NCBI GenBank assembly: GCA_018711135.1
Contig: DVIS01000022.1
Coordinates: 1 to 58,792, forward strand
Reading direction: 5' to 3'
DNA length: 58,792 nucleotides
DNA from: Candidatus Onthousia faecavium
Lineage (GTDB): Bacteria; Bacillota_I; Bacilli_A; RF39; UBA660
In this document: in pieces, positions 1,170 through 21,636 of the stretch
Position numbering within the stretch: position 1 is the stretch's first letter
Layout: every line of letters starts with the position of its first letter
The notes under the pieces: model-generated
Told to the model about the DNA's origin: nothing
Database searches by the model: none
What the model saw: the letters and a program-made list of their open reading frames with translations, nothing else
Program-made: the position numbers and the translations under genes

Positions 1170-3173
1170 TTAAATATTTTTTTTCGTAACAGTCCCTAAG
1201 TCAAAATAAATATTGTTGTAATTAAACTCTTTCTCATCTAGATTAAGTTCATAACTAGAATTAATATGAGTACATCTTCCATCAAAGTAAGTTTTAAATT
1301 TATCATTTTTAACATTAACTAACGTATAAGGAGTATCTTTATCTATATTTAAGACATTACCTTTAATAAGCATAACCTCAATAGGTCCTTTAGTTTTAAT
1401 AATTAGCGGAATATTACCAAATCTTTCTCTAATAGTTTTGATTAAGTTTTTAAGTTCCAAAGTGTTAAGTTCTACTGATAGAGTTATGGCTTTATAACCT
1501 AATTTATAAAGATAATAAGCAGTATAAGAGTTAAAAACATTTAAGTGGTATGAAGAGATAACATCAGTAGTTGGTTTATATAAGTTACTAACGATACTAT
1601 GATCTTTTAAGACATCTTTAATATGAAAAGGATTATGAGTTATTTCTTGATATAAAGATAAATCTAAAGGTTCAGTATCATTTATCTTAGTAAAGGTTAT
1701 ATCATTTACAACTGGTTCTAAATAATTATTAAGTCTTGCACCAACTAGTCTTTCAGCAAGGGTACGTCTTGCTATATTTAAGTCACCTATTCTAATAAAA
1801 ATATCATCATCAATATCTAAAGAAATGTGTTTAGCTTTAAAGGGGGTATTACCTAGTTTTTCTATTTGTAAGACTAATCTTTCTTTAGATAGAGGATTAT
1901 TAAGAGACTTTTCTACTATATCCCCAGTATAAGTTACTTGGTTAGTACCATCATCAAAAGTCAAAGTGAATCTCTCATATTTTTTAGCTTTGATAGTAAT
2001 ATTGATAGGAACTTTTCTTGTAATAGTAAAGTCTGTTATTTCCAATTTCTTATTGGTTGTCTTTCTAACCTCATCATAACTTGTTAAATTAACTTTATTA
2101 TCAATTTCAATAGTCGCTTGAGGGTTAGCTTTGTTAATTAAATTATCCTTAAGATCATATATATAATTAACAATCATACCTTTATTACTTTCCCTAAAAC
2201 GAATACCATCACCTTGGAGTAATTCTTTATCTAGTTTTATTCTAATCCTATCATCAGTAATATTTATAACTTTACCTAAAGAACTACCAAGATGATTAGG
2301 ACTAGTTTTATTAATTAAATTAGGGTCATTAAAAAGATGTCCTTTAGTAAAGCCACGATAGAAGAGGCTTTTTAAGTCTTCTAGATCTTCTTTAGTAATA
2401 TCTTTACCATCTAATATATTACGATAATATCTTGTTATAAAGTAAACATAGGATGGACTTTTCATTCGACCTTCGATTTTTAAACTGGTAATATTTTTAG
2501 GTAAGTCTTTAATGTTAGAACCAACATTTAATTCTTTCATTGATAAGAGATAACCCTCATCTATTAAAGTTTTATCTTTATATAGTTTATAAGGTAAGCG
2601 ACAGCTTCCTACACATTCACCACGATTGCCACTTCTACCACCTAACATAGAACTAAAAAGACAATTACCAGAATAACTGACACATAGAGCACCATGAACA
2701 AAAACCTCTAGTTCAATTGGAATATCGATCTTTTCGATTTCTTCTTTTGTCATCTCCCTAGGTAAAACTACTCTTTTAACGCCAAGCTCTTTTAATAGTT
2801 TAATAGTTTCATAGGAACTACTATTCATTTGAGTTGAGGCATGAATTGTAAGATTAGGATATTTTTCTAAACAAAGGGAAATCATTCCTAAGTCTTGCAT
2901 TAAGATAGCATCAACACCAAGATTATAGAGGAATTCTACCTCTTCTAAAAAAGAAGATACCTCACTTTCTTTAATAAGCGTATTCATTGTTACATAGATC
3001 TTAACTCCATATATTTTACCAAGACGTAAGACTGTTTTTAATTCTTCATTTGTAAAGTTTTTGGCGTAGCTTCTAGCCCCAAAGTTTTTAAAAGCTAAAT
3101 AAATGGCATCGGCACCACCATTTAAAGCTGCATAAAAAGAATTTATATCCCCTGCTGGTACTAATAACTCCAT
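1170..3173 (-). CDS. peptidase U32 family protein with DUF3656 (RlhA-like RNA hydroxylation factor)
   Basis: ELLVPAG, GADAIY, HASTQ, HGALCVSYSGNC..SGNRGEC..CR and LKIEGRMK motifs. Confidence 0.9.
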   Translation of the reverse strand: MELLVPAGDINSFYAALNGGADAIYLAFKNFGARSYAKNFTNEELKTVLRLGKIYGVKIYVTMNTLIKESEVSSFLEEVEFLYNLGVDAILMQDLGMISLCLEKYPNLTIHASTQMNSSSYETIKLLKELGVKRVVLPREMTKEEIEKIDIPIELEVFVHGALCVSYSGNCLFSSMLGGRSGNRGECVGSCRLPYKLYKDKTLIDEGYLLSMKELNVGSNIKDLPKNITSLKIEGRMKSPSYVYFITRYYRNILDGKDITKEDLEDLKSLFYRGFTKGHLFNDPNLINKTSPNHLGSSLGKVINITDDRIRIKLDKELLQGDGIRFRESNKGMIVNYIYDLKDNLINKANPQATIEIDNKVNLTSYDEVRKTTNKKLEITDFTITRKVPINITIKAKKYERFTLTFDDGTNQVTYTGDIVEKSLNNPLSKERLVLQIEKLGNTPFKAKHISLDIDDDIFIRIGDLNIARRTLAERLVGARLNNYLEPVVNDITFTKINDTEPLDLSLYQEITHNPFHIKDVLKDHSIVSNLYKPTTDVISSYHLNVFNSYTAYYLYKLGYKAITLSVELNTLELKNLIKTIRERFGNIPLIIKTKGPIEVMLIKGNVLNIDKDTPYTLVNVKNDKFKTYFDGRCTHINSSYELNLDEKEFNYNNIYFDLGTVTKKNI

Positions 3174-3197
3174 AAATTACCCCTTTCATTATAGATA

Positions 3198-3692
3198 CTA
3201 AGAATTTGTCTTTGTATTTTTCTTTACTAAAGTTCTACCTGCTTCTTCATATAATACTAACTCTATAGAATCCATATCTCTAGCATCTAGTATATTGATA
3301 TTATCAGGACACCCTTTAGTAATATATTCTTTATTACCTAAGAAATATTTCATTTTCATCATTTCTTCTATTTTTTGGTTTTTCGTTCTTTTAGAACTAA
3401 GGTAAGAAGCATAAATTAAAATGGTGTTTGTAAAAACAACTGGAAAAAAGTTTTCAAAGTAATCAAATGCTCCTGCCATAAGTCTAACGAGAGCATTAGG
3501 ATCTAAAGGATTAGGATCAATTCCTAAGAAATTAGCGGCAGCATTGATACTTATCGGAATAGATGCTAAAACAGTACCCGTAATAGCACCTTTGATTGCA
3601 TATTTTTTATTAATTTTATTAACATAATCAGTAATATTAGTAATTCTAACTTTTTCTTCTATTGCTTTTATTTTTTCTTCTTCTGTTTTCAT
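3198..3692 (-). CDS. hypothetical membrane protein
   Basis: 164-aa ORF with SD and two hydrophobic segments. Confidence 0.65.
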   Translation of the reverse strand: MKTEEEKIKAIEEKVRITNITDYVNKINKKYAIKGAITGTVLASIPISINAAANFLGIDPNPLDPNALVRLMAGAFDYFENFFPVVFTNTILIYASYLSSKRTKNQKIEEMMKMKYFLGNKEYITKGCPDNINILDARDMDSIELVLYEEAGRTLVKKNTKTNS

Positions 3693-3801
3693 TATGCACC
3701 TCTTTAAAATTAACTATATTATATACTAGTTTCTTTTTATTAACAATTCTAAATTTAGCGAAAGAAAAAGTACCAAGAATATTTCTTAATACTTAAAGAT
3801 T

Positions 3802-4410
3802 TTATTTATCTTTTATCTCTTGCATCTTTTGATTAATATTTAGCATTTTTTGATCTAAAGTATGGATATCAGTAGCACATTTATGTAAGTAGTCTTTAAT
3901 CTCTTTAGGAACATTACCTTGAAATTTATAGGAAAGTTTGTGTTCTAGACTAGCCCAAAAGTCCATAGCAATCGTTCTTACTTGGATTTCTGCTTCTACT
4001 AAGGTAACACCATCTAACAAGTTTACAGGAACATAAACTAATAGATGATAACTAGAATAACCTGTATCTTTAGGATTTGTTATATAATCTTTTTGCTGGT
4101 GAACCTCGATTTGACTACAGTTTTCAATTAATCTTACAATTTTATAGACGTCAGATAGAAAACTACAAACAATTCTCATGCCAATTAAGTCGTGAACATG
4201 CTTTTCGATATTTTGGATAGTCATAGTGCAACCTTTTTTATTTAGTTTTTTAGCAATACTATCATAACTTTTTATTCTTGTTTTAACATGTTCAACTGGA
4301 TTATAGTTATTTTTGTATTCAAAGTCTTGTAATAAAATACTAATTTGGGTTTCTAATGTTTTTAAAGCAGCTGTATATTTTAGTAATAGCCCTTCAAAGT
4401 CTTCTTCCAT
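3802..4410 (-). CDS. small alarmone synthetase ((p)ppGpp synthetase, RelP/RelQ family)
   Basis: RIKS..SI..K, DLIGMRI, KDYI.NPK.TGYSSYH and EIQVRTIAMDFWASLEH motifs. Confidence 0.92.
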   Translation of the reverse strand: MEEDFEGLLLKYTAALKTLETQISILLQDFEYKNNYNPVEHVKTRIKSYDSIAKKLNKKGCTMTIQNIEKHVHDLIGMRIVCSFLSDVYKIVRLIENCSQIEVHQQKDYITNPKDTGYSSYHLLVYVPVNLLDGVTLVEAEIQVRTIAMDFWASLEHKLSYKFQGNVPKEIKDYLHKCATDIHTLDQKMLNINQKMQEIKDK

Positions 4411-4441
4411 TTATGTTCCTTTCTAAAAGACGAAAACTAGA

Positions 4442-4879
4442 CTATTTTTCATCTAAGTCTAGTGTTTCTATCTCTTCTACTACAGCCATTTGTTGTTCAA
4501 CAATTATTTTGAGTTTTCTTTTAAATATTTTAATATTTCTTTCTAAGGTATCTCTTTCTTCTTCAATGCGTCTTGCTTTTAATAAAGCCTCTCCAACTAT
4601 TCTTGAGGCATTATTTTTAGCTTCTTTAATAATAATATCTGCTTCTTCTCTAGCTAAACTTTTAACGTTGTCAGCAGTTTTTTCAGCATTAATTAAAGAA
4701 TGTTTTAAAGTATCTTCCATATTTTCATAATGACTTAATTTATCTTGTAAGACTTTTATTTCTTTCCTTTGCTCTTGACACTTTTTTATGATACCTTCTG
4801 TTTCTTTAATAACATCATTTACAAACTTATTAACCTCTACTTTATTATAACCATTTGCTTCATAGTTAAATTTATCCAT
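4442..4879 (-). CDS. divIVA: DivIVA family cell division protein
   Basis: N-terminal F...NGY...EV..F motif followed by a coiled coil; follows sepF. Confidence 0.85.
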   Translation of the reverse strand: MDKFNYEANGYNKVEVNKFVNDVIKETEGIIKKCQEQRKEIKVLQDKLSHYENMEDTLKHSLINAEKTADNVKSLAREEADIIIKEAKNNASRIVGEALLKARRIEEERDTLERNIKIFKRKLKIIVEQQMAVVEEIETLDLDEK

Positions 4880-4905
4880 TATCTCACACCCTTCACTGGG
4901 TTATT

Positions 4906-5343
4906 TTACCAATCAAATTCATCGTCTTCTGGATCTTGCTTTTTACCTCTTTTAACTGTTTTCGCAGGAGCAGCATCATCACTTATTTCTCCTTCAACGT
5001 TTACATTGTTTGGAGTACATAGAAAAATTCCTCCTCCTAATTTTTGTAAGTCTCCACCAATAGCGTATAAAGTTCCACTTAAAAAGTCAACTATTCTCTT
5101 AGCCTGATCTGGTGTTACTCTTTTTAAATTAACAACAACTGCATTTCTTTCTTTTAAATAATCTGCTATTTGTTGACTTTCAGAATAAGCGCGGGGCTCT
5201 AATAACATCATTTTACTACCAGCAACCCCATTTTCATAACTATATTCTTCTTTACTCACTTTGTAATACTCCTCCTCTTTAACCTCTTCTTCATCGTTAG
5301 TATCATCACTACCTATTAGTTTTCTTAATTTATCTAAAGCCAC
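4906..5343 (-). CDS. sepF: cell division protein SepF
   Basis: [42 protein letters not shown]. Confidence 0.95.
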
Positions 5344-5408: not shown

Positions 5409-7184
5409 TTAACTATTTTTATACCAAATATTAGTAATATCTACATTATTAGATAGTGGTTCGGGATTAGCTTTTTCAAAATACATATTAATAGGAACTT
5501 TAAAAGCACTACCGAAAGCAATACAATTACCTGGTTTTAAATTTTTAAGTTGATTAGCAACCTCCAAAGAGATACTAGGTACCATTTCTTTAATATAGTT
5601 TAAATCTTTAGGATGTAGTGTTCTTAGAATAATAAAGTTTGAACATTGAGAAATAGCAGTATCAGAAAGTTCACTAGGACGTTGTGTAATTAAACCTAAT
5701 AAGACCCCATATTTACGTCCTTCTTTGGTAATACGATCAAAAATATTATAGCCAAGAATTTCTATATCAGTATCCTTTTGAACATAACGATGAGCCTCTT
5801 CAATAACGATATGATAAGGAACACTACCACGCGCTTCATTACTAACTGCTGTATCAAAGATAAGTTTAGATATAATTTTAGTAATAACTTTAGCCATTCT
5901 ATCTTCAATATAACTAATATTAAAGTTAACTATTTGACATTTAGCACCTAAAGCATTAGTAAATAATTGATCTAAATAAGTATCTCTTGAAATATAGACA
6001 TTGCTATCAAAGAAAACATGACTAGGACTATTAGCAAGAGAATGAAGTCGAACACTTAAAACATTAGCATAGTCATAAACTTTATCACTTTTCAAGATTC
6101 CTTCACTAATTAAAGCAAAGTCCATCGCTGTTTCTAAATCTTTTAGAGTATAAGCAATTAATTTTTGAGGACGATCTAAGACATTTAAATCTTCCATGAT
6201 AAATTGTTTTACAAAATTAACAACAAGTTCCATTTCCATTAGTTTACCAGTCTTATCTATATATAAACACTGTTTAAAAGTTCTAACATAACCAGGTTGA
6301 ACTATTTTAGCATCAAGACTTAAGTCTTTAGTATTGAATTTAGTTAAAACAGCAATGACTTGATCTCTTATTTTAGTAGAACCATGACCGCTTAGAAGAA
6401 TATCTAAAACAGCCCGAGCGATAATATCATTCTTATATTTAATAACCTCAGGATCATCACCAGTTAAGATAGTAACAAGTGAAAGAGCTTTTTCAATAAT
6501 AGGTAACTGATTCGGTGTAGTTACATTAAGAAGTAAAGCTAAGTCATCAACTCCTAATAACCATAAAGGAATATTTAAGATATCACTAGTTGGATCACTA
6601 GGGTTAGGATTTGTGGTATAAGTTTTATAATGGATATTAGGGTTTACTTGATCAATCGAACCTAAAGCCCTTGTATATTCACCATAAGCATCAAACATAA
6701 TGACATTAGCACCTACAGGGCTTTTCTTAGGATCAGCAAAGATATTTTGGAAAATTCTACTAACTGAGAAGGATTTACCAGCTCCACTATTACCTAATAT
6801 TGCAAAATGGTTACTGAAAAAAGCATTGACGTTGACATTTATTTTATAGTTTTGATAAATATTAGAGTAACCTAAAGTAACATCTTCTCTTGTTGGTTCA
6901 TTAGGCCCTAGTATTAAAGCAAGTTCTGCCATATTAACAATTCTAACACTTGATCTAAACGATGGTTTAGCACTAATTCCAGGTAAAAAAACATTGCCTT
7001 TTATTTCTCCTACAATATTAATTTTTAAAGTAGTTTTTGTACTATTAACAATCTCTCCTACTATTTTTGTTTCTCCATCTTCAAAAATAACATGTAAATT
7101 AAGTAAATTTGTCTGCTTTGTTAAATCTATAGTCAAATCTATAGTAACTGTATTATCAATAATCTCTTTAATTGTTCCTAACAT
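5409..7184 (-). CDS. HerA/FtsK-superfamily ATPase (DUF87)
   Basis: N-terminal barrel region, HFAILGNSGAGKS (Walker A), D.YGEY, IEEAHRY, KEGRKYG and ITQRPSEL. Confidence 0.9.
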   Translation of the reverse strand: MLGTIKEIIDNTVTIDLTIDLTKQTNLLNLHVIFEDGETKIVGEIVNSTKTTLKINIVGEIKGNVFLPGISAKPSFRSSVRIVNMAELALILGPNEPTREDVTLGYSNIYQNYKINVNVNAFFSNHFAILGNSGAGKSFSVSRIFQNIFADPKKSPVGANVIMFDAYGEYTRALGSIDQVNPNIHYKTYTTNPNPSDPTSDILNIPLWLLGVDDLALLLNVTTPNQLPIIEKALSLVTILTGDDPEVIKYKNDIIARAVLDILLSGHGSTKIRDQVIAVLTKFNTKDLSLDAKIVQPGYVRTFKQCLYIDKTGKLMEMELVVNFVKQFIMEDLNVLDRPQKLIAYTLKDLETAMDFALISEGILKSDKVYDYANVLSVRLHSLANSPSHVFFDSNVYISRDTYLDQLFTNALGAKCQIVNFNISYIEDRMAKVITKIISKLIFDTAVSNEARGSVPYHIVIEEAHRYVQKDTDIEILGYNIFDRITKEGRKYGVLLGLITQRPSELSDTAISQCSNFIILRTLHPKDLNYIKEMVPSISLEVANQLKNLKPGNCIAFGSAFKVPINMYFEKANPEPLSNNVDITNIWYKNS

Positions 7185-7278: not shown

Positions 7279-9222
7279 TCATTCCAAAGCTAAGGTGAAG
7301 GGTTGCTCTTTCGTTCCATCACCATTTACAATTTGCACGTTAGATTTTAGATTTAGTGATGGCCAGACGCCGTACGCAATGGACGGACCGTTGACGTTCG
7401 CGTAGCCACCGTTGTTCACGTACCACACGCGAGACACACTATACGGTGTTATGGTCCAATAATATGTATTGTTACCATATCTATCAAATTGTCCTGCCAT
7501 TAATTCTCCTAAGCGTAGTAATCCTACCTTTGCTGTTGTCGTACTTGATGTCAGAATATTATCCGTAGTATTTGTATATTTGGCTAGTTTATATGAGGCA
7601 CCACTTCCCATTGTTCCCAAATACCATGTTGTCGCATCTTCTATCATTGCTATATCTTCATCTGTCATATAGCCATTTTCCGTATTCAAATAGTCATTAT
7701 TCAAAAATGTTCCTATGGTATTACTACTTGAATAATTTACATTTCTATTGCTATCAAAAGTACTTTCTACAAATGTTTCCCCACTCTTTAACGGCTCAGC
7801 ACTCGTTATCTTTGTTCCTGTACCATTTTCATGACTCACTATCCGATATAGATTATTCTCGCCTATTCCAAACCTTATATATTCTCCACTATATCTTGTA
7901 TTTAACATTGTTCCTGAAAGGTCTTTTTCATTATCTCCGTTTAAGCGATATGGGTTATCTGCCGAACCGTCACCATCTACAATTCGAACACTAGATTTTA
8001 GATTTATAGACGGCCGCACGCCAACCGCGTTCGAAGGACTATAGTTGTCCGCGCTGCCACTGCGGTAGACGTAACGCACGTTAGACGAAGAATAAGGAGT
8101 GATACTCCACCAGGAAAGTCCATTATTTAAATAGCCATTACTATAAGTTGTTCCTCTATAGCTCTTTGTATACTCATAAATATTTAATAATCCTACTGCA
8201 GCTGTCACCATTGTTGTTTCAGCTGGCTTACTTGTAGATGTAGTTAATGTAGCATTCCATACGCTATCCATCTTTATAAATTTCTCTGGTTCTCTTAAAT
8301 TACTCAAAAAACCATCCACACTCGTATCATTTAACCACTCTTCCATATAACTACCTGCAAAAGCCGTATTATCATTTGCATTATATGGTATTACACTTAT
8401 ATTCCACTGAGTTACTAACTTAACACTGTTATCACTTGGATCTATTGATACTGCTCTCCACAACTTACCACTATACCAGATATAGTTATTGGGATCTGTT
8501 CCTGTTATAAATGTCTGATCTGGATCTGTTGTATTTATCGCGCCATTTTCTCCTACTCCTGCTAGTAATGTATCTGCAACAGGTTCTCCTTGTGTATTAA
8601 CACCATTAACAACTATCTTACCATGATAATGCTTACCTAAAACATCATTTCCTACCCCTTCTCTTATCCATACATATAAAGTATAAGTAACGCTTTGCCC
8701 TGCTTCTAATGATCCACTAGCAATCTTATAATTAGAACCAGCTACACTAGATAAATTAGTAGGACTACCTGTATCTAATTTATATCTTATATAATCTTTA
8801 TTTAACTGATTATTACTACAATTATCTTGACTTATCATATCAGTATCATCTTGAATATATACCTCATAATCTGCTGCTAAACTACCAGTATTTTTAATTG
8901 AAAAAACATAAGGTGTCAGTTTTAATCCCTCTTCATCACTCATTGGATACTTATCACTTAAATTAATTGTATTACTACTATCTTCTCCAAAATCAATATT
9001 TAAAGTCCCTACTTTTATCACATTATAATCTGCTGATTTTGAAATAGACGTAAAAACAGCATATGCACTACCCAAAGATATAACTGTAACTCCTAATATT
9101 GATAAAAGTGTCACTAAAAGTTGTCTTTTAGCCATCTTTGTTAATGCTGCCTCTTTAAAATTATAACTTTCTTTTTTTTCATCTGTTATTTTTATCTTAC
9201 GGCGTTTACTAAATTTATTCAT
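7279..9222 (-). CDS. surface protein: SipW/TasA-like N-terminus plus two tandem DUF6273-like CLec domains; probable DGR target
   Basis: TM followed by AYAVFT..VGTLNIDF; two repeats of W..TPYS..V.YV..G......P....GV.PS.NLKS.V.IV.GDG....P. Confidence 0.7.
   Translation of the reverse strand: MNKFSKRRKIKITDEKKESYNFKEAALTKMAKRQLLVTLLSILGVTVISLGSAYAVFTSISKSADYNVIKVGTLNIDFGEDSSNTINLSDKYPMSDEEGLKLTPYVFSIKNTGSLAADYEVYIQDDTDMISQDNCSNNQLNKDYIRYKLDTGSPTNLSSVAGSNYKIASGSLEAGQSVTYTLYVWIREGVGNDVLGKHYHGKIVVNGVNTQGEPVADTLLAGVGENGAINTTDPDQTFITGTDPNNYIWYSGKLWRAVSIDPSDNSVKLVTQWNISVIPYNANDNTAFAGSYMEEWLNDTSVDGFLSNLREPEKFIKMDSVWNATLTTSTSKPAETTMVTAAVGLLNIYEYTKSYRGTTYSNGYLNNGLSWWSITPYSSSNVRYVYRSGSADNYSPSNAVGVRPSINLKSSVRIVDGDGSADNPYRLNGDNEKDLSGTMLNTRYSGEYIRFGIGENNLYRIVSHENGTGTKITSAEPLKSGETFVESTFDSNRNVNYSSSNTIGTFLNNDYLNTENGYMTDEDIAMIEDATTWYLGTMGSGASYKLAKYTNTTDNILTSSTTTAKVGLLRLGELMAGQFDRYGNNTYYWTITPYSVSRVWYVNNGGYANVNGPSIAYGVWPSLNLKSNVQIVNGDGTKEQPFTLALE
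7345..7462 (-). repeat. putative DGR variable region VR-2 (C-terminal)
   Basis: 49 of 80 bases are G+C over 7361-7440; many NNC codons (AAC/TAC/GTC/CGC). Confidence 0.65.
7996..8113 (-). repeat. putative DGR variable region VR-1 (internal)
   Basis: 49 of 80 bases are G+C over 8011-8090; collinear with VR-2. Confidence 0.65.
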
Positions 9223-17883: not shown

Positions 17884-19401
17884 TTAATATGATTTTCTTA
17901 GTCTAGAACGTAAACGTAAAGCTGTAAGAGCAACACCTAAAACAGCAATAACAGAAATAGCAACATAAAGAACTATACCATCACTAGTTTCTGGGTTTTC
18001 TACCTCTTCAGTTGGCGTTTCTTCTGTAGGTACATCTGTAACAGGACTAACGATAACATAGTTACCATTTTCATCTTGTTCCATAGTTAAATCATCACTA
18101 ACATAACTAGATACATCACTACTGAACTCTCCACCAGTAATGAATTTTTCTTCTGTTTCTGTTGTAACAACGCTAGCTTCTTTAGATGTAAAGCTTCCAC
18201 CTGCAATAGCTAAATCAGTAACTGTAGATTCATCTGCTACAGGATTACCTAAACCATCTACACCAATACCTTCATAGAAAGCATTACCATTTTCACTTTC
18301 AATTGTACCTCCATTAACAGTAATAGATGTACCATCAGCATAAACAGCACTACTTGTAATACTAATAGCAGCTCCTGTATCATCAGTTCCATCATCACGA
18401 GCTGTAACTACCTCACGGTATTCTCCATTAGCTTTAATAGTACCACCATTAATTGTGATATTACCTTCTTTAATAGAAATACCAGTTTGACCTAAAATAG
18501 TTGGTCCAGTTCCATCAGCATTACCAATAATCAAAGTTCCTGTTTGACCATGATAAATACCAACAGAATCTCCTCCAACCGCTGCAGCACCTTCTTGAGG
18601 TTGAGCAGTAATAGATCCTCCATAGATAGCTATAGTTGTATTTTCAGTTCCATCAGCAGTAGATTGAATAATACCAGAACCAACAGCATTGATAGAACCG
18701 CCATTCATTGTAAGAACAGTCATTCCTTCTTCTCCATTACCATAAAGTCTGATACCATTATAAGCACTGATTTCTCCATTATTAACAACTACATAAGTTC
18801 CAGCCGCATTAGCACTACCTAGATTTATAGCAGCAGAATTTTTTACACTAACTGGTGCAATAATTTTACCACCGTTTACTTCTAAAGCTGCAGCTTCTTT
18901 AACATTATTACCCCAAAGCATAATTGTTCTTGAACCATTTGATTCAATAACTCCACCATTAATAATAGCTTTAGCTTTATCATCGCTATCTACTGGATTT
19001 ATTTGTACAGTACGATCAGCACTATTAATAGTTACTTTATCAATCGTTAAAGTACCATCTGTTACTAATACACCTCTTTGAGCTGTATTAATAATACTAC
19101 CAGCATTAGCAGAACTATCAGTAATAGTAAAGTTTTTGCCATTACCATTAAAGTCAAAGACATATTTAACATCAGCATTAGCTGTAATTGTATTACCATT
19201 TAAATCAATAGTAAGTGCTTTATCAACTGTAATTTGTGAATCTACAGTAACATTACCTATTAATTTAATAGTATCATTTTCTTCTGCAGATGTAATAGCA
19301 TCAGCTAAATCACTGTCAACTTCAATAGTTTTAGCATTAACCATCATTGGTAAGCCTAGCATTGTTACTATACCTACCAAAAACATACTTACTTTTTTCA
19401 T
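17884..19401 (-). CDS. cell-wall-anchored surface protein with beta-helix-like repeats
   Basis: Signal peptide, TIDLNGNTI, repeated INGG.I units, NPETSD sorting-like motif followed by TM and basic tail. Confidence 0.8.
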   Translation of the reverse strand: MKKVSMFLVGIVTMLGLPMMVNAKTIEVDSDLADAITSAEENDTIKLIGNVTVDSQITVDKALTIDLNGNTITANADVKYVFDFNGNGKNFTITDSSANAGSIINTAQRGVLVTDGTLTIDKVTINSADRTVQINPVDSDDKAKAIINGGVIESNGSRTIMLWGNNVKEAAALEVNGGKIIAPVSVKNSAAINLGSANAAGTYVVVNNGEISAYNGIRLYGNGEEGMTVLTMNGGSINAVGSGIIQSTADGTENTTIAIYGGSITAQPQEGAAAVGGDSVGIYHGQTGTLIIGNADGTGPTILGQTGISIKEGNITINGGTIKANGEYREVVTARDDGTDDTGAAISITSSAVYADGTSITVNGGTIESENGNAFYEGIGVDGLGNPVADESTVTDLAIAGGSFTSKEASVVTTETEEKFITGGEFSSDVSSYVSDDLTMEQDENGNYVIVSPVTDVPTEETPTEEVENPETSDGIVLYVAISVIAVLGVALTALRLRSRLRKSY

Positions 19402-19533
19402 TTTTATTCTCTCCTTCCTATCCTGAATATAGCATATTAAATTTTTTATTACAATAGTTTCGAAATATAATTACCTTTTTTTACAATTGCTTTACTTATT
19501 CGACATTTTTCTAATATAGCGGCTTTAATAATA

Positions 19534-19560
19534 ACTTATTTTAAGTTTAATCATAAAATA
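19534..19560 (+). promoter_or_regulatory. possible sigma-K/sigma-E promoter
   Basis: AC-16 nt-CATAAAATA fits the B. subtilis sigK consensus AC-N16-CATA-N3-TA. Confidence 0.35.
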
Positions 19561-19580
19561 TATTGGAAAGGAGAATTATA

Positions 19581-20219
19581 ATGTTTGGAGATTCTTGTAA
19601 TAATAATGCTCATCCTCGTTGTCGTTTTTGTTATGTTCAAGGGCCTACTGGTCCTACCGGACCTGCTGGCCCTGCAGGCGGTCCAACAGGAACTACTGGT
19701 CCAACTGGACCAACAGGTGCTACGGGAGTTACCGGACCTACCGGTGCAACTGGGGCCACTGGAGCAACGGGAGCTACAGGTGTAACACCATCTTTAACAA
19801 TTGGCACTGTTACAACTGGAACCCCAGGAGGTACAGCAACAGCAAGCATCACTGGTACTGCTCCTAATTTTATCTTAAGTTTAAGTATTCCACAAGGTCC
19901 AACTGGCCCTACTGGAGTATCTGGACCAACAGGTGCAAGTGGCGCTACCGGACCAACGGGTGCAAGTGGTGTTACTGGTCCTACAGGTGCAAGTGGCGCT
20001 ACCGGACCAACGGGTGCAAGTGGTGTTACTGGTCCAACTGGTGCAAGTGGTGTTACTGGTCCCACAGGAGCAAGCGGTGCTACCGGTCCAACTGGTGCAA
20101 GCGGTGTTACCGGTCCTACAGGAGCAAGCGGTGCTACCGGTCCAACTGGTGCAAGCGGTGTTACTGGTCCAACTGGTCCTACAGGACCAACCGGTCCAAC
20201 GGGTCCTACTGGTCCATAG
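19581..20219 (+). CDS. BclA-like collagen repeat protein
   Basis: [12 protein letters not shown] triplets; Cys-rich N-terminus; SD AAAGGAG before ATG 19581; no signal peptide. Confidence 0.8.
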
Positions 20220-20224
20220 TGTCA

Positions 20225-20257
20225 AAAACTGTTTTCCTTGACCTGAAAACAGTTTTT
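20225..20257 (+). terminator. intrinsic terminator
   Basis: AAAAACTGTTTTC...GAAAACAGTTTTT. Confidence 0.7.
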
Positions 20258-20364
20258 CTATTTAAAGCCCTAAATTCATTTTTTCACATCTATTCTACAC
20301 TGCTGTTTATAAAAGTTCAATCTTTTATAATATTTTAAAACGGAAAACATTTGTATTTATACTT

Positions 20365-20417
20365 TTTTTCGGCTATAACCGAAAAAGTTTGACAACTTTT
20401 TAATTATCATGTATAAT
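20365..20417 (+). promoter_or_regulatory. consensus sigma-A promoter with an upstream palindrome
   Basis: TTTTTCGG-N6-CCGAAAAA, then TTGACA(20389)-17-TATAAT(20412). Confidence 0.7.
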
Positions 20418-20436
20418 GCAATTAGAGGTGAAACCA

Positions 20437-21636
20437 ATGTTAATAAGAACACAATATCTTAATCAATTAATCAGGAGTAAAGACTTAAATTTAATTAAAG
20501 TAATTACTGGTGTACGTAGATGTGGAAAAAGCACTTTATTATTACAATATAAAGATTACTTAATTTCCCAAGGTATTATTGATAAAAATATAATCTATAT
20601 GAACTTTGAAAGTGCTGACTGGTATAGTATTAAAGATTATAATGACTTATATAAACATATAAGAGAAAGATATAGTAACCAAAAATTATATATTTTATTA
20701 GATGAGGTTCAAAACATTGAGAAATGGGAAAAAGCTATTAACTCACTATTAGTAGATATAGACTGTGATATTTATATCACTGGTTCAAATGCCTATCTAT
20801 TATCTAGTGAACTAACTACATTATTAGCAGGAAGAATATTAACAATTAAAATCTATCCATTTTCTTTTAAAGAATTTCTCTTAGAATACCCATTCAATAA
20901 AGAAGAAGACAAATATGAAAAATTTGATAAATATTTAAAATATGGTGGTATGCCTATGTTAGTAAATATGAATGATAATGAAGAGTTAATGATAAATTAT
21001 TTAAACGATATTAAAGAGGTAGTACTAAAAAAAAATGTTATTAGTAGGAACAATATAAAAGACGTGGTATTTTTAGATAATTTAATCAAATATATGTCAT
21101 CTGTTATTGGAAATTTAACCACCCCTTATAAAATTGCTGAGTTCATGAAAAAAAATGGCAGCAGTATAACAAGTGAAACAGTTGATTCTTACTTAAAAAT
21201 GTTAGAAAATGCTTATTTTATCTATAGAGTTCCAAGATTTGAATTAAAAGGGAAACAATTATTAAAAACCCAAGGTAAATATTATTTCATTGATAATGGC
21301 TTAAAAAATGTAATTGATGGTATTTCATCATATGATAGTGGCAGTAGTCTTGAAAATTTAGTATATATTGAACTATTACGTAGAGGTTATGAGGTATATG
21401 TAGGTAAATATGATGATATTGAAATAGATTTTATTGCTATTAAACCAAATGAAAAAATCTACTATCAAGTATCAAGAAGTATCTTAGACGAAAAAGTAGA
21501 AGAAAGAGAAAAAAAATCTTTACTAGCAATACACGATAATTATAGAAAAGTGATTTTAACAATGGATAATGTCAAAAATAAAGAATTAGATGGAATCCAA
21601 GTAATTAATATTATTGACTTTTTAATGGAGCAATAA
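20437..21636 (+). CDS. AAA_14/DUF4143 ATPase (subclass A)
   Basis: GVRRCGKST, LDEVQ, ITGSNA, YGGMP and EIDFIA..YYQV; start ATG 20437 after GAGGTG. Confidence 0.88.
   Translation: MLIRTQYLNQLIRSKDLNLIKVITGVRRCGKSTLLLQYKDYLISQGIIDKNIIYMNFESADWYSIKDYNDLYKHIRERYSNQKLYILLDEVQNIEKWEKAINSLLVDIDCDIYITGSNAYLLSSELTTLLAGRILTIKIYPFSFKEFLLEYPFNKEEDKYEKFDKYLKYGGMPMLVNMNDNEELMINYLNDIKEVVLKKNVISRNNIKDVVFLDNLIKYMSSVIGNLTTPYKIAEFMKKNGSSITSETVDSYLKMLENAYFIYRVPRFELKGKQLLKTQGKYYFIDNGLKNVIDGISSYDSGSSLENLVYIELLRRGYEVYVGKYDDIEIDFIAIKPNEKIYYQVSRSILDEKVEEREKKSLLAIHDNYRKVILTMDNVKNKELDGIQVINIIDFLMEQ

Follow-up and report, generated by a model that had tools for sequence, protein, structure and literature searches.

The 58,792-nt contig DVIS01000022.1 of Candidatus Onthousia faecavium, a small-genome chicken-gut bacterium, carries a gene whose protein has two C-type-lectin-like domains, each ending in a short variable region (VR), and both VRs were very probably written by a diversity-generating retroelement (DGR). 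The contig (C54 in our numbering, and called the window below, meaning the whole stretch of DNA that was analysed) belongs to an assembly of 55 contigs and 1.28 Mb, with ~28% G+C and 92% completeness. We refer to this gene as the target gene, and to the VRs closing its first and second lectin-like domains as VR_N and VR_C. An original prediction, drawn from the letters of the window alone, had proposed a bivalent remote target of one or more trans-acting DGRs. Two DGR-written VRs and a reverse transcriptase (RT) gene on another contig, C1, agree with that proposal, whereas writing in trans by a C1-type RT is something we infer.

The two most G+C-rich 80-nt tracts of the target gene hold 49/80 G+C each (7356–7435 and 8008–8087) in a gene of 35.0% and a window of 29.4% G+C, and the two segments are collinear, in frame and gapless across the core. 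VR_N and VR_C have the codons TCT, GTG, TAC, GGC, GCG, GCG and GGC in common, differ at first or second codon positions in the pairs CGC/AAC, AAC/TAC, AAC/CGC, GGT/AGT, TAC/AGC, AAC/GAC and GTC/AAC, and show non-A third-position differences in GTG/GTC, CCG/CCT and TCC/TCG. These cores, ~61% G+C within an AT-rich gene, and the codon patterns had all been listed in the original prediction and were recovered at those coordinates. Merged regions with at least 45/80 G+C number only four in the window, two of them the VR cores, and 28 across the genome, where at least 10 are segments of the target family resembling either VRs or template repeats (TRs). BLAST and nhmmer identified 11 strongly similar G+C-rich segments in paralogous genes (two each on C54, C39, C14 and C4, and one each on C1, C6 and C10), and on C19 and C24 AT-rich paralogues share the domain composition but show no G+C spike.

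On C39, C6, C49 and C55, AAC-rich, noncoding, partial copies of the VR lie ~100 nt beyond the stop codons of target genes, and the VRs differ from these TR relics almost only at TR adenines, the outcome anticipated in the prediction from A-to-N mutagenesis. Counts were made in fixed-register comparisons restricted to the true extent of each relic, which replaced gapped local alignments that overran breakpoints and blurred the counts. VR_N mismatches the C6 relic at 7/14 A and 1/30 non-A positions (p = 0.0006); VR_C mismatches the C49 relic at 3/9 A and 1/22 non-A positions (p = 0.063) and the 3′ part of the C39 relic at 2/4 A and 1/21 non-A positions (p = 0.057). Within the 73-nt core only, the mismatches are 5/10 A and 0/20 non-A for VR_N against C6 and 3/8 A and 0/16 non-A for VR_C against C49. 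The 5′ part of the C39 relic suits other VRs, C14b for one mismatching it at 8/12 A and 0/27 non-A positions. Each VR fits a particular template type, because cross-type comparisons were non-specific, with 7/14 A and 7/30 non-A mismatches for VR_C against C6 and 5/9 A and 5/22 non-A mismatches for VR_N against C49. Type A comprises VR_N and the VRs on C1, C4 (37.4 kb) and C6; type B comprises VR_C, to which the VR on C10 is nearest.

As an outside predictor we took those columns that are A in at least three of five relatives' TRs. Among the four type-A VRs of this genome, 20/24 predicted A columns vary as against 4/49 others (p = 1.9e-10), and VR_N and VR_C differ from each other at 16/24 predicted A columns as against 10/49 others (p = 1.6e-4). 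The non-A columns of 11 VRs hold 8 A among 539 letters. Adenine-only mutagenesis from a TR would explain why the VRs are G+C-rich and adenine-poor save in their diversifiable AAC/AAT codons.

The upstream flank of VR_N is identical at 31–32/36 positions to its positional homologues C39a, C4b and C14b, to which its non-A core is only 33–38/49 identical. That non-A core is 46–48/49 identical to the C-terminal VRs on C1, C4 and C6, whose flanks agree at only 15–18/36 and whose A columns agree at 8–11/24. Because the non-A columns are homogenised and the A columns scrambled, independently of the framework phylogeny, VR_N points to retrohoming, and on these alignments the tract is best read as overwriting from a shared template with adenine mutagenesis, not as inheritance and not as gene conversion. 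For VR_C, five independent homologues (P0002, 3, 5, 6 and 7) share 93–95% of the C-domain framework and 46–61% of the 26 VR residues (p 3e-5 to 4e-8). VR_N and VR_C agree at 39/49 non-A columns; the other within-gene pairs of this genome agree at 39/49 (C39) and 28/49 (C14), and six of eight such pairs in relatives at 47–48/49. The comparisons support writing of VR_N from a C6-type template and of VR_C from a C49/C39-type template, in line with the earlier suggestion that the two regions may use different templates.

The prediction had placed neither an RT nor a template repeat in the window, and our searches agree: RVT_1 matched C1, C30, C20 and, weakly, C45, not C54, and on C54 an nhmmer profile found only the two VRs and no TR-like copy. 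The DGR RT and Avd genes that it expected elsewhere in the genome were found on C1, in the order 3′ end of a target gene with a VR, IS4-family (insertion sequence, IS) transposase gene, 112-aa open reading frame (ORF), Avd, RT. The RT, Avd and 112-aa accessory ORFs are full length and equal in length to their orthologues in relatives. The RT contains IGNYTSQ, which we take to be a DGR-RT signature. The accessory ORF has no Pfam, NCBIfam or PHROG match. Its look-alikes in the Atlas are mostly small 'MutS domain I' (MutS_I) clusters (score 0.92), a lead only, and Pfam gave a MutS_I match for 0/6 orthologues at E up to 10; the ORF may belong to the MutS-like (MSL) accessory class named in the passages of PMC5758913 drawn on here. 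A noncoding spacer of ~230 nt just after the TR (C1 ~1850–2100, aligned with L044, L047 and C39) is near-invariant across species whose RTs are 78–86% identical, and is likely the structured, priming part of the DGR RNA.

Orthologues of the 316-aa RT, at 73–86% identity, occur in 14 of the 35 same-genus genomes searched, in which several other DGR-type RT lineages are also present. Four intact cassettes were examined (G015, G012, G001 and G005), with the order target gene (610–664 aa, with two VR-like segments), full-length TR, ~230-nt spacer, accessory ORF of ~112–118 aa, Avd and RT. Avd adjoins the RT in 7/8 cassette stretches fetched from relatives, and for G012 no Avd frame of at least 100 aa was listed. 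In each of the four intact cassettes, the mismatches of a gene's two VRs to the TR next to them fall at 8–16 of 24–25 A and 0–5 of 48–49 non-A positions, VR2 of G012 having 12/24 A and 0/48 non-A mismatches. Template and RT, on whose presence in this genome or its relatives the original prediction had been made to depend, thus stand together in relatives as intact cassettes in which one TR writes two VRs. The closest relatives of the target gene in other species (71–77% identity) include cis targets beside the RT in G015, G006, G023 and G005, and the family as a whole, counted from matches at E up to 1e-60, occurs in 34/35 other same-genus genomes with up to 22 members per genome.

Remote VRs were sought in G012 and G001, where only the two cis VRs and one weak 75% match were found; this pair gives no support for trans-homing. 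In G015, two-VR genes without an adjacent cassette on contigs C55 and C3 give no clean fit to either assembled G015 TR (6–17/49 non-A mismatches), and mixed within-gene pairs occur there on C70 (39/49 non-A identity) and C3 (31/49). The same genome has at least five two-VR genes (C70, C55, C23 and C3; loci L085, L088, L098 and L099), some with their own TR or TR relic and some without. Most of its within-gene VR pairs share a gene-specific non-A signature (47–48/49), which implies that each gene has its own template and each genome several copies of the cassette.

The relics of our genome are damaged in several ways. On C6 and C49 the core breaks off after ~30 and ~24 nt, respectively, and a similar short unrelated sequence follows. 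At the two breaks (C6 ~3940–3975 and C49 ~5950–5976, both minus strand) this sequence is AATTATAAGRCAT, which suggests a common breakpoint or element end; a tyrosine-recombinase-like ORF lies near the C6 relic, at 3366–3851. The C39 copy has an internal gap of 18 nt and has lost a spacer segment between two short direct repeats, and what follows it is homologous to the C1 cassette, with an Avd-to-RT deletion and the accessory ORF fused to the last RT residues. C55 is a frameshifted TR/VR chimera whose end resembles the C10 gene. C1, which has the only intact RT, retains ~35 degenerate nt of a TR cut by the IS4-family element, which they abut.

The structure of the target protein was modelled from 70 diverse homologues (mean pLDDT 90.1, pTM 0.75), in place of a first model from 42 close homologues that was unusable (mean pLDDT 40.8). 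Each VR lies at the C-terminal end of a C-type-lectin fold, so that the placement made in the prediction from the letters alone is borne out by the model and by fold matches: residues 245–408 and 449–627 match such folds with Z scores that are middling and consistent over many rows, and model strands at residues 382–385, 391–394 and 399–402 cover VR_N. Domain 1 aligns with the DUF6273 N-terminal domain of the Thomasclavelia ramosa IgA peptidase (9qa6; VIA-align, rmsd 2.4, 185 aligned), with further matches to Legionella Lcl-C (8q4e, Z 7.5) and the DGR variable protein TvpA (2y3c, Z 6.7), and residues 279–410 match Pfam DUF6273 (PF19789, E 1.9e-5, 25 bits against a gathering cut-off of 23.5). 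Domain 2, which has no match of its own in a Pfam search of the target protein, resembles C-type-lectin-like domains (LLT1, CLEC5A, CLEC12A and others, Z 5.4–6.7) and Mtd (1yu0, Z 5.5). The match of the N-terminal beta domain to the TasA fibre has a middling score, within the range of chance-level best matches, and is a lead only. The excerpts of PMC10743442 used here describe DUF6273 as a C-lectin-like DGR target domain in gut phages, and viral look-alikes of the target protein are mostly phage DUF6273 proteins; no function is stated for the DUF6273 domain of the IgA peptidase in the excerpts of PMC12402451. From the whole we infer a surface-displayed, bivalent, variable ligand-binding protein.

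The flank immediately 3′ of VR_N contains a 13-nt stretch common to all VRs of the family and present also in AT-rich non-VR paralogues. A hairpin after the VR (inverted repeat CCRTC...GAYGG) looked compensatory at synonymous sites in VR_N and was dropped as inconsistent over 19 VRs and four non-VR segments: several true VRs are without it and some non-VR paralogues have it. A poly-G leader switch was looked for upstream of the target gene and not found.

We propose that the target gene encodes a surface binding protein in which a helix, serving as signal or anchor, is followed by a TasA-like stalk and by two C-type-lectin-like heads of DUF6273 type, and that a chromosomal DGR would write the VR at the end of both heads by mutagenic retrohoming. 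A TR transcript would be reverse-transcribed with errors at adenines only, and the cDNA would replace the VR. The gene would be a target not adjacent to its cassette, served by the RT on C1 and by the templates of which copies remain on C6, C49, C39 and C55, with the two heads presumably written from the two template types given above. On a wider reading, which we think rather unlikely as a whole, the genus would harbour a multi-template DGR network in which one RT/Avd/accessory lineage serves several diverged TRs and cDNAs cross loci. A C6-type template would then have overwritten the first head while the second stayed C49/C39-type, diversification of a family of at least eight members would be combinatorial, and cassettes would have been retired piecemeal by IS insertion, deletion and TR/VR recombination.

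Several observations weigh against DGR writing of the target gene as we describe it. The RT is on a separate contig from the target gene, and the assembly does not give the distance between them. The adenine tests for VR_C use short fragments (p ~0.06 each), and the Avd matches to NF033474 (E 0.088) and PF22296 (E 0.03) are weak. No full-length TR occurs in the 55-contig assembly, all five copies in TR position (C6, C49, C39, C55 and C1) being broken; the assembly is incomplete and fragmented at the target family, and absence of a TR from the real genome does not follow. VR_N is identical to that of the window in 3/3 full-length members of the protein's 90% cluster, which argues against fast ongoing change, and the run data are contig-level and confounded by paralogues.

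Those data are Logan contigs, not reads, of four public chicken-gut runs, each from a different study, and are confounded by other strains too. Contigs end exactly at 7342 in 4/4 runs, with the sequence beyond common to paralogues, and unitigs break at 7342 and 8023 owing to k-mers common to paralogues; because k-mers are shared in this way, run depth and breaks are uninformative on hypervariability. Among the variant positions listed, 6/6 in VR_N and 1/2 in VR_C fall in the cores on columns where every covering TR has A, the other VR_C position, 7444, being upstream of the core. Run X5 has one contig that covers 7876–8143, with the unique flank and the whole of VR_N, and shows 17 differences and no gaps, as against 43 mismatches and five gaps for its nearest paralogue in this genome. 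A scan of metagenome contigs for alleles of the target gene found none closer than 76% identity among 10 loci, too distant for comparison within the species.

How far the system is active is a separate matter from whether it wrote the VRs. The target could still be live if the real genome has intact TRs of both types, unassembled or unbinned as repeats, and the C1-type RT, Avd and accessory protein still rewrite both VRs in trans. We regard this as doubtful. It accords with the full-length ORFs on C1, with a C1 spacer after the TR that is near-identical to that of intact cassettes, with a 92%-complete assembly that breaks at the family and has four orphan C-terminal fragments at contig ends, and with the listed variants on TR-A core columns and the X5 contig. 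Present activity is doubtful because every assembled TR copy is broken, each differently; the invariance of VR_N in its cluster speaks against activity as well, within-gene agreement as low as 28/49 at non-A columns looks like old, drifting VRs, and in public runs contigs of other strains or species are indistinguishable from alleles, with variants known only among the positions listed. A test for ongoing diversification was likewise divided, VR_C divergence on near-constant frameworks speaking for it and VR_N invariance against it, with run data of contigs only; that writing still goes on in this strain is possible, though we lean against it.

An assembly join could have made one gene of two templates: the N-part with VR_N would belong with a C1- or C6-type C-domain, as a cis target, and the VR_C domain would come from another paralogue. 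P0001, P0123 and P0125 are 100% identical to the target protein over residues 1–452 and then continue into a C6-type or C1-type C-terminal domain; the switch falls within a stretch highly conserved among paralogues, where summed depth is highest, the orphan fragments at contig ends are all C-terminal and none is N-terminal, and a single template signature is the rule in 6/8 within-gene pairs of relatives. Both flanks of the gene are, however, equal in depth in run X1 (~22–28), mixed pairs exist elsewhere (two in G015 and one on C39), and mosaicism is family-wide (P0004, 93% vs 78%; P0002–7, 83–86% in the N-part vs 93–95% in the C-framework), so that real recombination is equally likely. The join of the halves at ~7770–7870 could be real recombination or an assembly path choice. 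We consider an artefact unlikely, and both segments stay DGR-written VRs either way. Far less credible, to the point of being almost negligible, is an origin without any retroelement, in which the G+C-rich segments would be conserved structural codons of a duplicated lectin domain under ordinary diversifying selection or gene conversion among paralogues. The two domains are indeed paralogous, the family is very large, and conservation of the 13 nt following the VR extends to AT-rich non-VR members. Against this stand the noncoding AAC-rich copies downstream of target genes, followed by Avd and RT; variation at codon positions 1–2 that coincides with TR adenines; non-A positions far more alike than the flanks while A positions are scrambled, which gene conversion cannot yield; and AT-rich paralogues that fold the same domain without a G+C spike.

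The modularity of the family is seen in the nearest relatives of the target protein, which differ between its parts: P0001, P0123 and P0125 are 100% identical in the N-part and 81–85% in the C-terminal lectin domain. This reflects either swaps of domains between paralogues or between strains, or assembly chimeras that arise often.

Table 1 Features of the target gene (window coordinates) and of the DGR cassette on contig C1.
Feature	Position	Strand	Basis or remarks
Target gene, 647 aa	7279–9222	minus	ORF; hydrophobic N-terminal helix, putative TasA-like beta domain, then two C-type-lectin-like (DUF6273) domains with a VR at the end of each
N-terminal hydrophobic helix, putative signal peptide or membrane anchor	9052–9138 (residues ~29–57)	minus	Sequence; model helix at residues 22–57
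N-terminal beta domain, putatively TasA-like	8590–9009 (residues 72–211)	minus	TasA fibre 8aur, Z 7.4, rmsd 3.2, 127 aligned
Lectin-like domain 1, DUF6273	7933–8589 (residues 212–430)	minus	Structural match 9qa6, Z 18.0
VR_N, type-A template signature	8013–8097 (~residues 376–403)	minus	End of lectin-like domain 1
3′ flank of VR_N, conserved, IMH-like (initiation of mutagenic homing) by position	7993–8012	minus	Alignments; function suggested by analogy
Lectin-like domain 2	7342–7878 (residues 449–627)	minus	Structural matches to C-type-lectin-like domains
VR_C, type-B template signature	7362–7446 (~residues 593–620)	minus	End of lectin-like domain 2
3′ flank of VR_C, conserved, IMH-like by position	7342–7361	minus	Alignments
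RT, 316 aa	C1:2772–3722		RVT_1 E 4.5e-23; phrog_1423 E 9.2e-70
Avd, 113 aa	C1:2462–2803		phrog_3206 'Avd protein of DGR' E 3.3e-7
Accessory ORF, ~112 aa	C1:2131–2469		Between TR spacer and Avd in every cassette of the lineage

The remaining two G+C-rich spots of the window both lie in a 218-aa ORF with collagen-like Gly-X-Y repeats (GPT/GAT/GVT; 19563–20219, plus strand), which adjoins a putative surface protein of 505 aa (17884–19401); no Rfam match was found at 19000–20800 of the window. A second, unrelated and apparently intact DGR occupies the minus strand of contig C30 (locus L023; ~4700–5140, 3128–4548 and 7500–8081). It has an Avd match to NF033474 (E 1.8e-22), an RT of 355 aa and two tandem AAC-rich TR copies with one and the same spacer after each; an ORF at the contig end closes with a matching G+C-rich VR, and a further VR-like stretch begins near 7500–7520. 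Many contig ends share repeats of 129–175 nt at 95–100% identity in at least 15 genome copies (for example the right end of C54 with the left ends of C3 and C43, and the left end of C54 with C31, C7 and C8), which represent a family of short dispersed repeats or else overlaps in the assembly graph.

A target with two VRs, a remote target and a DUF6273 target are each already in print, and the system is of a known kind; the two-VR target gene implies no new mechanism. New here are the two-template signature within one ORF and the five differently decayed TR copies beside one intact RT. From gut Bacilli with small genomes, the case adds a well-documented cellular, non-phage DGR that diversifies, on our reading, both lectin heads of a single surface protein, and its within-genome series of decayed cassettes shows how hypermutation systems get retired. 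For annotation, a G+C spike that is poor in adenine and has sharp borders is a reliable flag of a DGR target in an AT-rich genome, also where the RT and TR are on other contigs. No paper on DGRs in Mollicutes- or RF39-like taxa was among the 12 top literature matches, which is not evidence of absence from print.

Among phage systems, the DUF6273 targets of the gut Firmicutes phages nd4 and nd12 (tentaclins, Mtd-like), as described in the excerpts of PMC10743442, are similar in that the VR lies in a DUF6273 C-type-lectin-like domain, forms a beta-hairpin-like tip, varies specifically at adenines and is served by an Avd and RT cassette. Unlike those phage tail proteins, the present family is chromosomal, cellular and hugely expanded, with a putative TasA-like N-domain and a presumed surface location, has two VR-bearing domains per polypeptide, and includes a target that is not beside its cassette. 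With the DGR of Bordetella phage BPP-1 (mtd-avd-TR-brt), in the parts of PMC5758913 considered here, the system has in common an Avd, a transcribed TR and an adenine-mutagenic cDNA that replaces a VR closing a C-lectin fold at its C-terminus. The BPP-1 distinction between IMH and IMH*, by which the 3′ end of the VR differs from the end of the TR, also has a parallel in G015, where the few non-A mismatches between VR and TR cluster at the 3′ end. It departs from BPP-1, as those parts describe it, in its order (target, TR, spacer, accessory ORF, avd, RT), in its extra small conserved ORF, in having no conserved G+C-rich hairpin after the VR, and in its several cassette copies or relics per genome.

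The target gene also resembles published DGRs with scattered targets in its non-adjacent chromosomal location, its paralogous family and its more than one VR per ORF. Non-adjacent or remote targets were found for 45/372 DGRs, with 73 such targets, according to the excerpts of PMC5758913, and ORFs bearing at least two VRs are on record as rare cases in those of PMC11661182 and PMC6642488. Unlike a published DGR in which one TR serves all targets, here the VRs of one gene bear two template signatures, and the genome holds several decayed TR copies.

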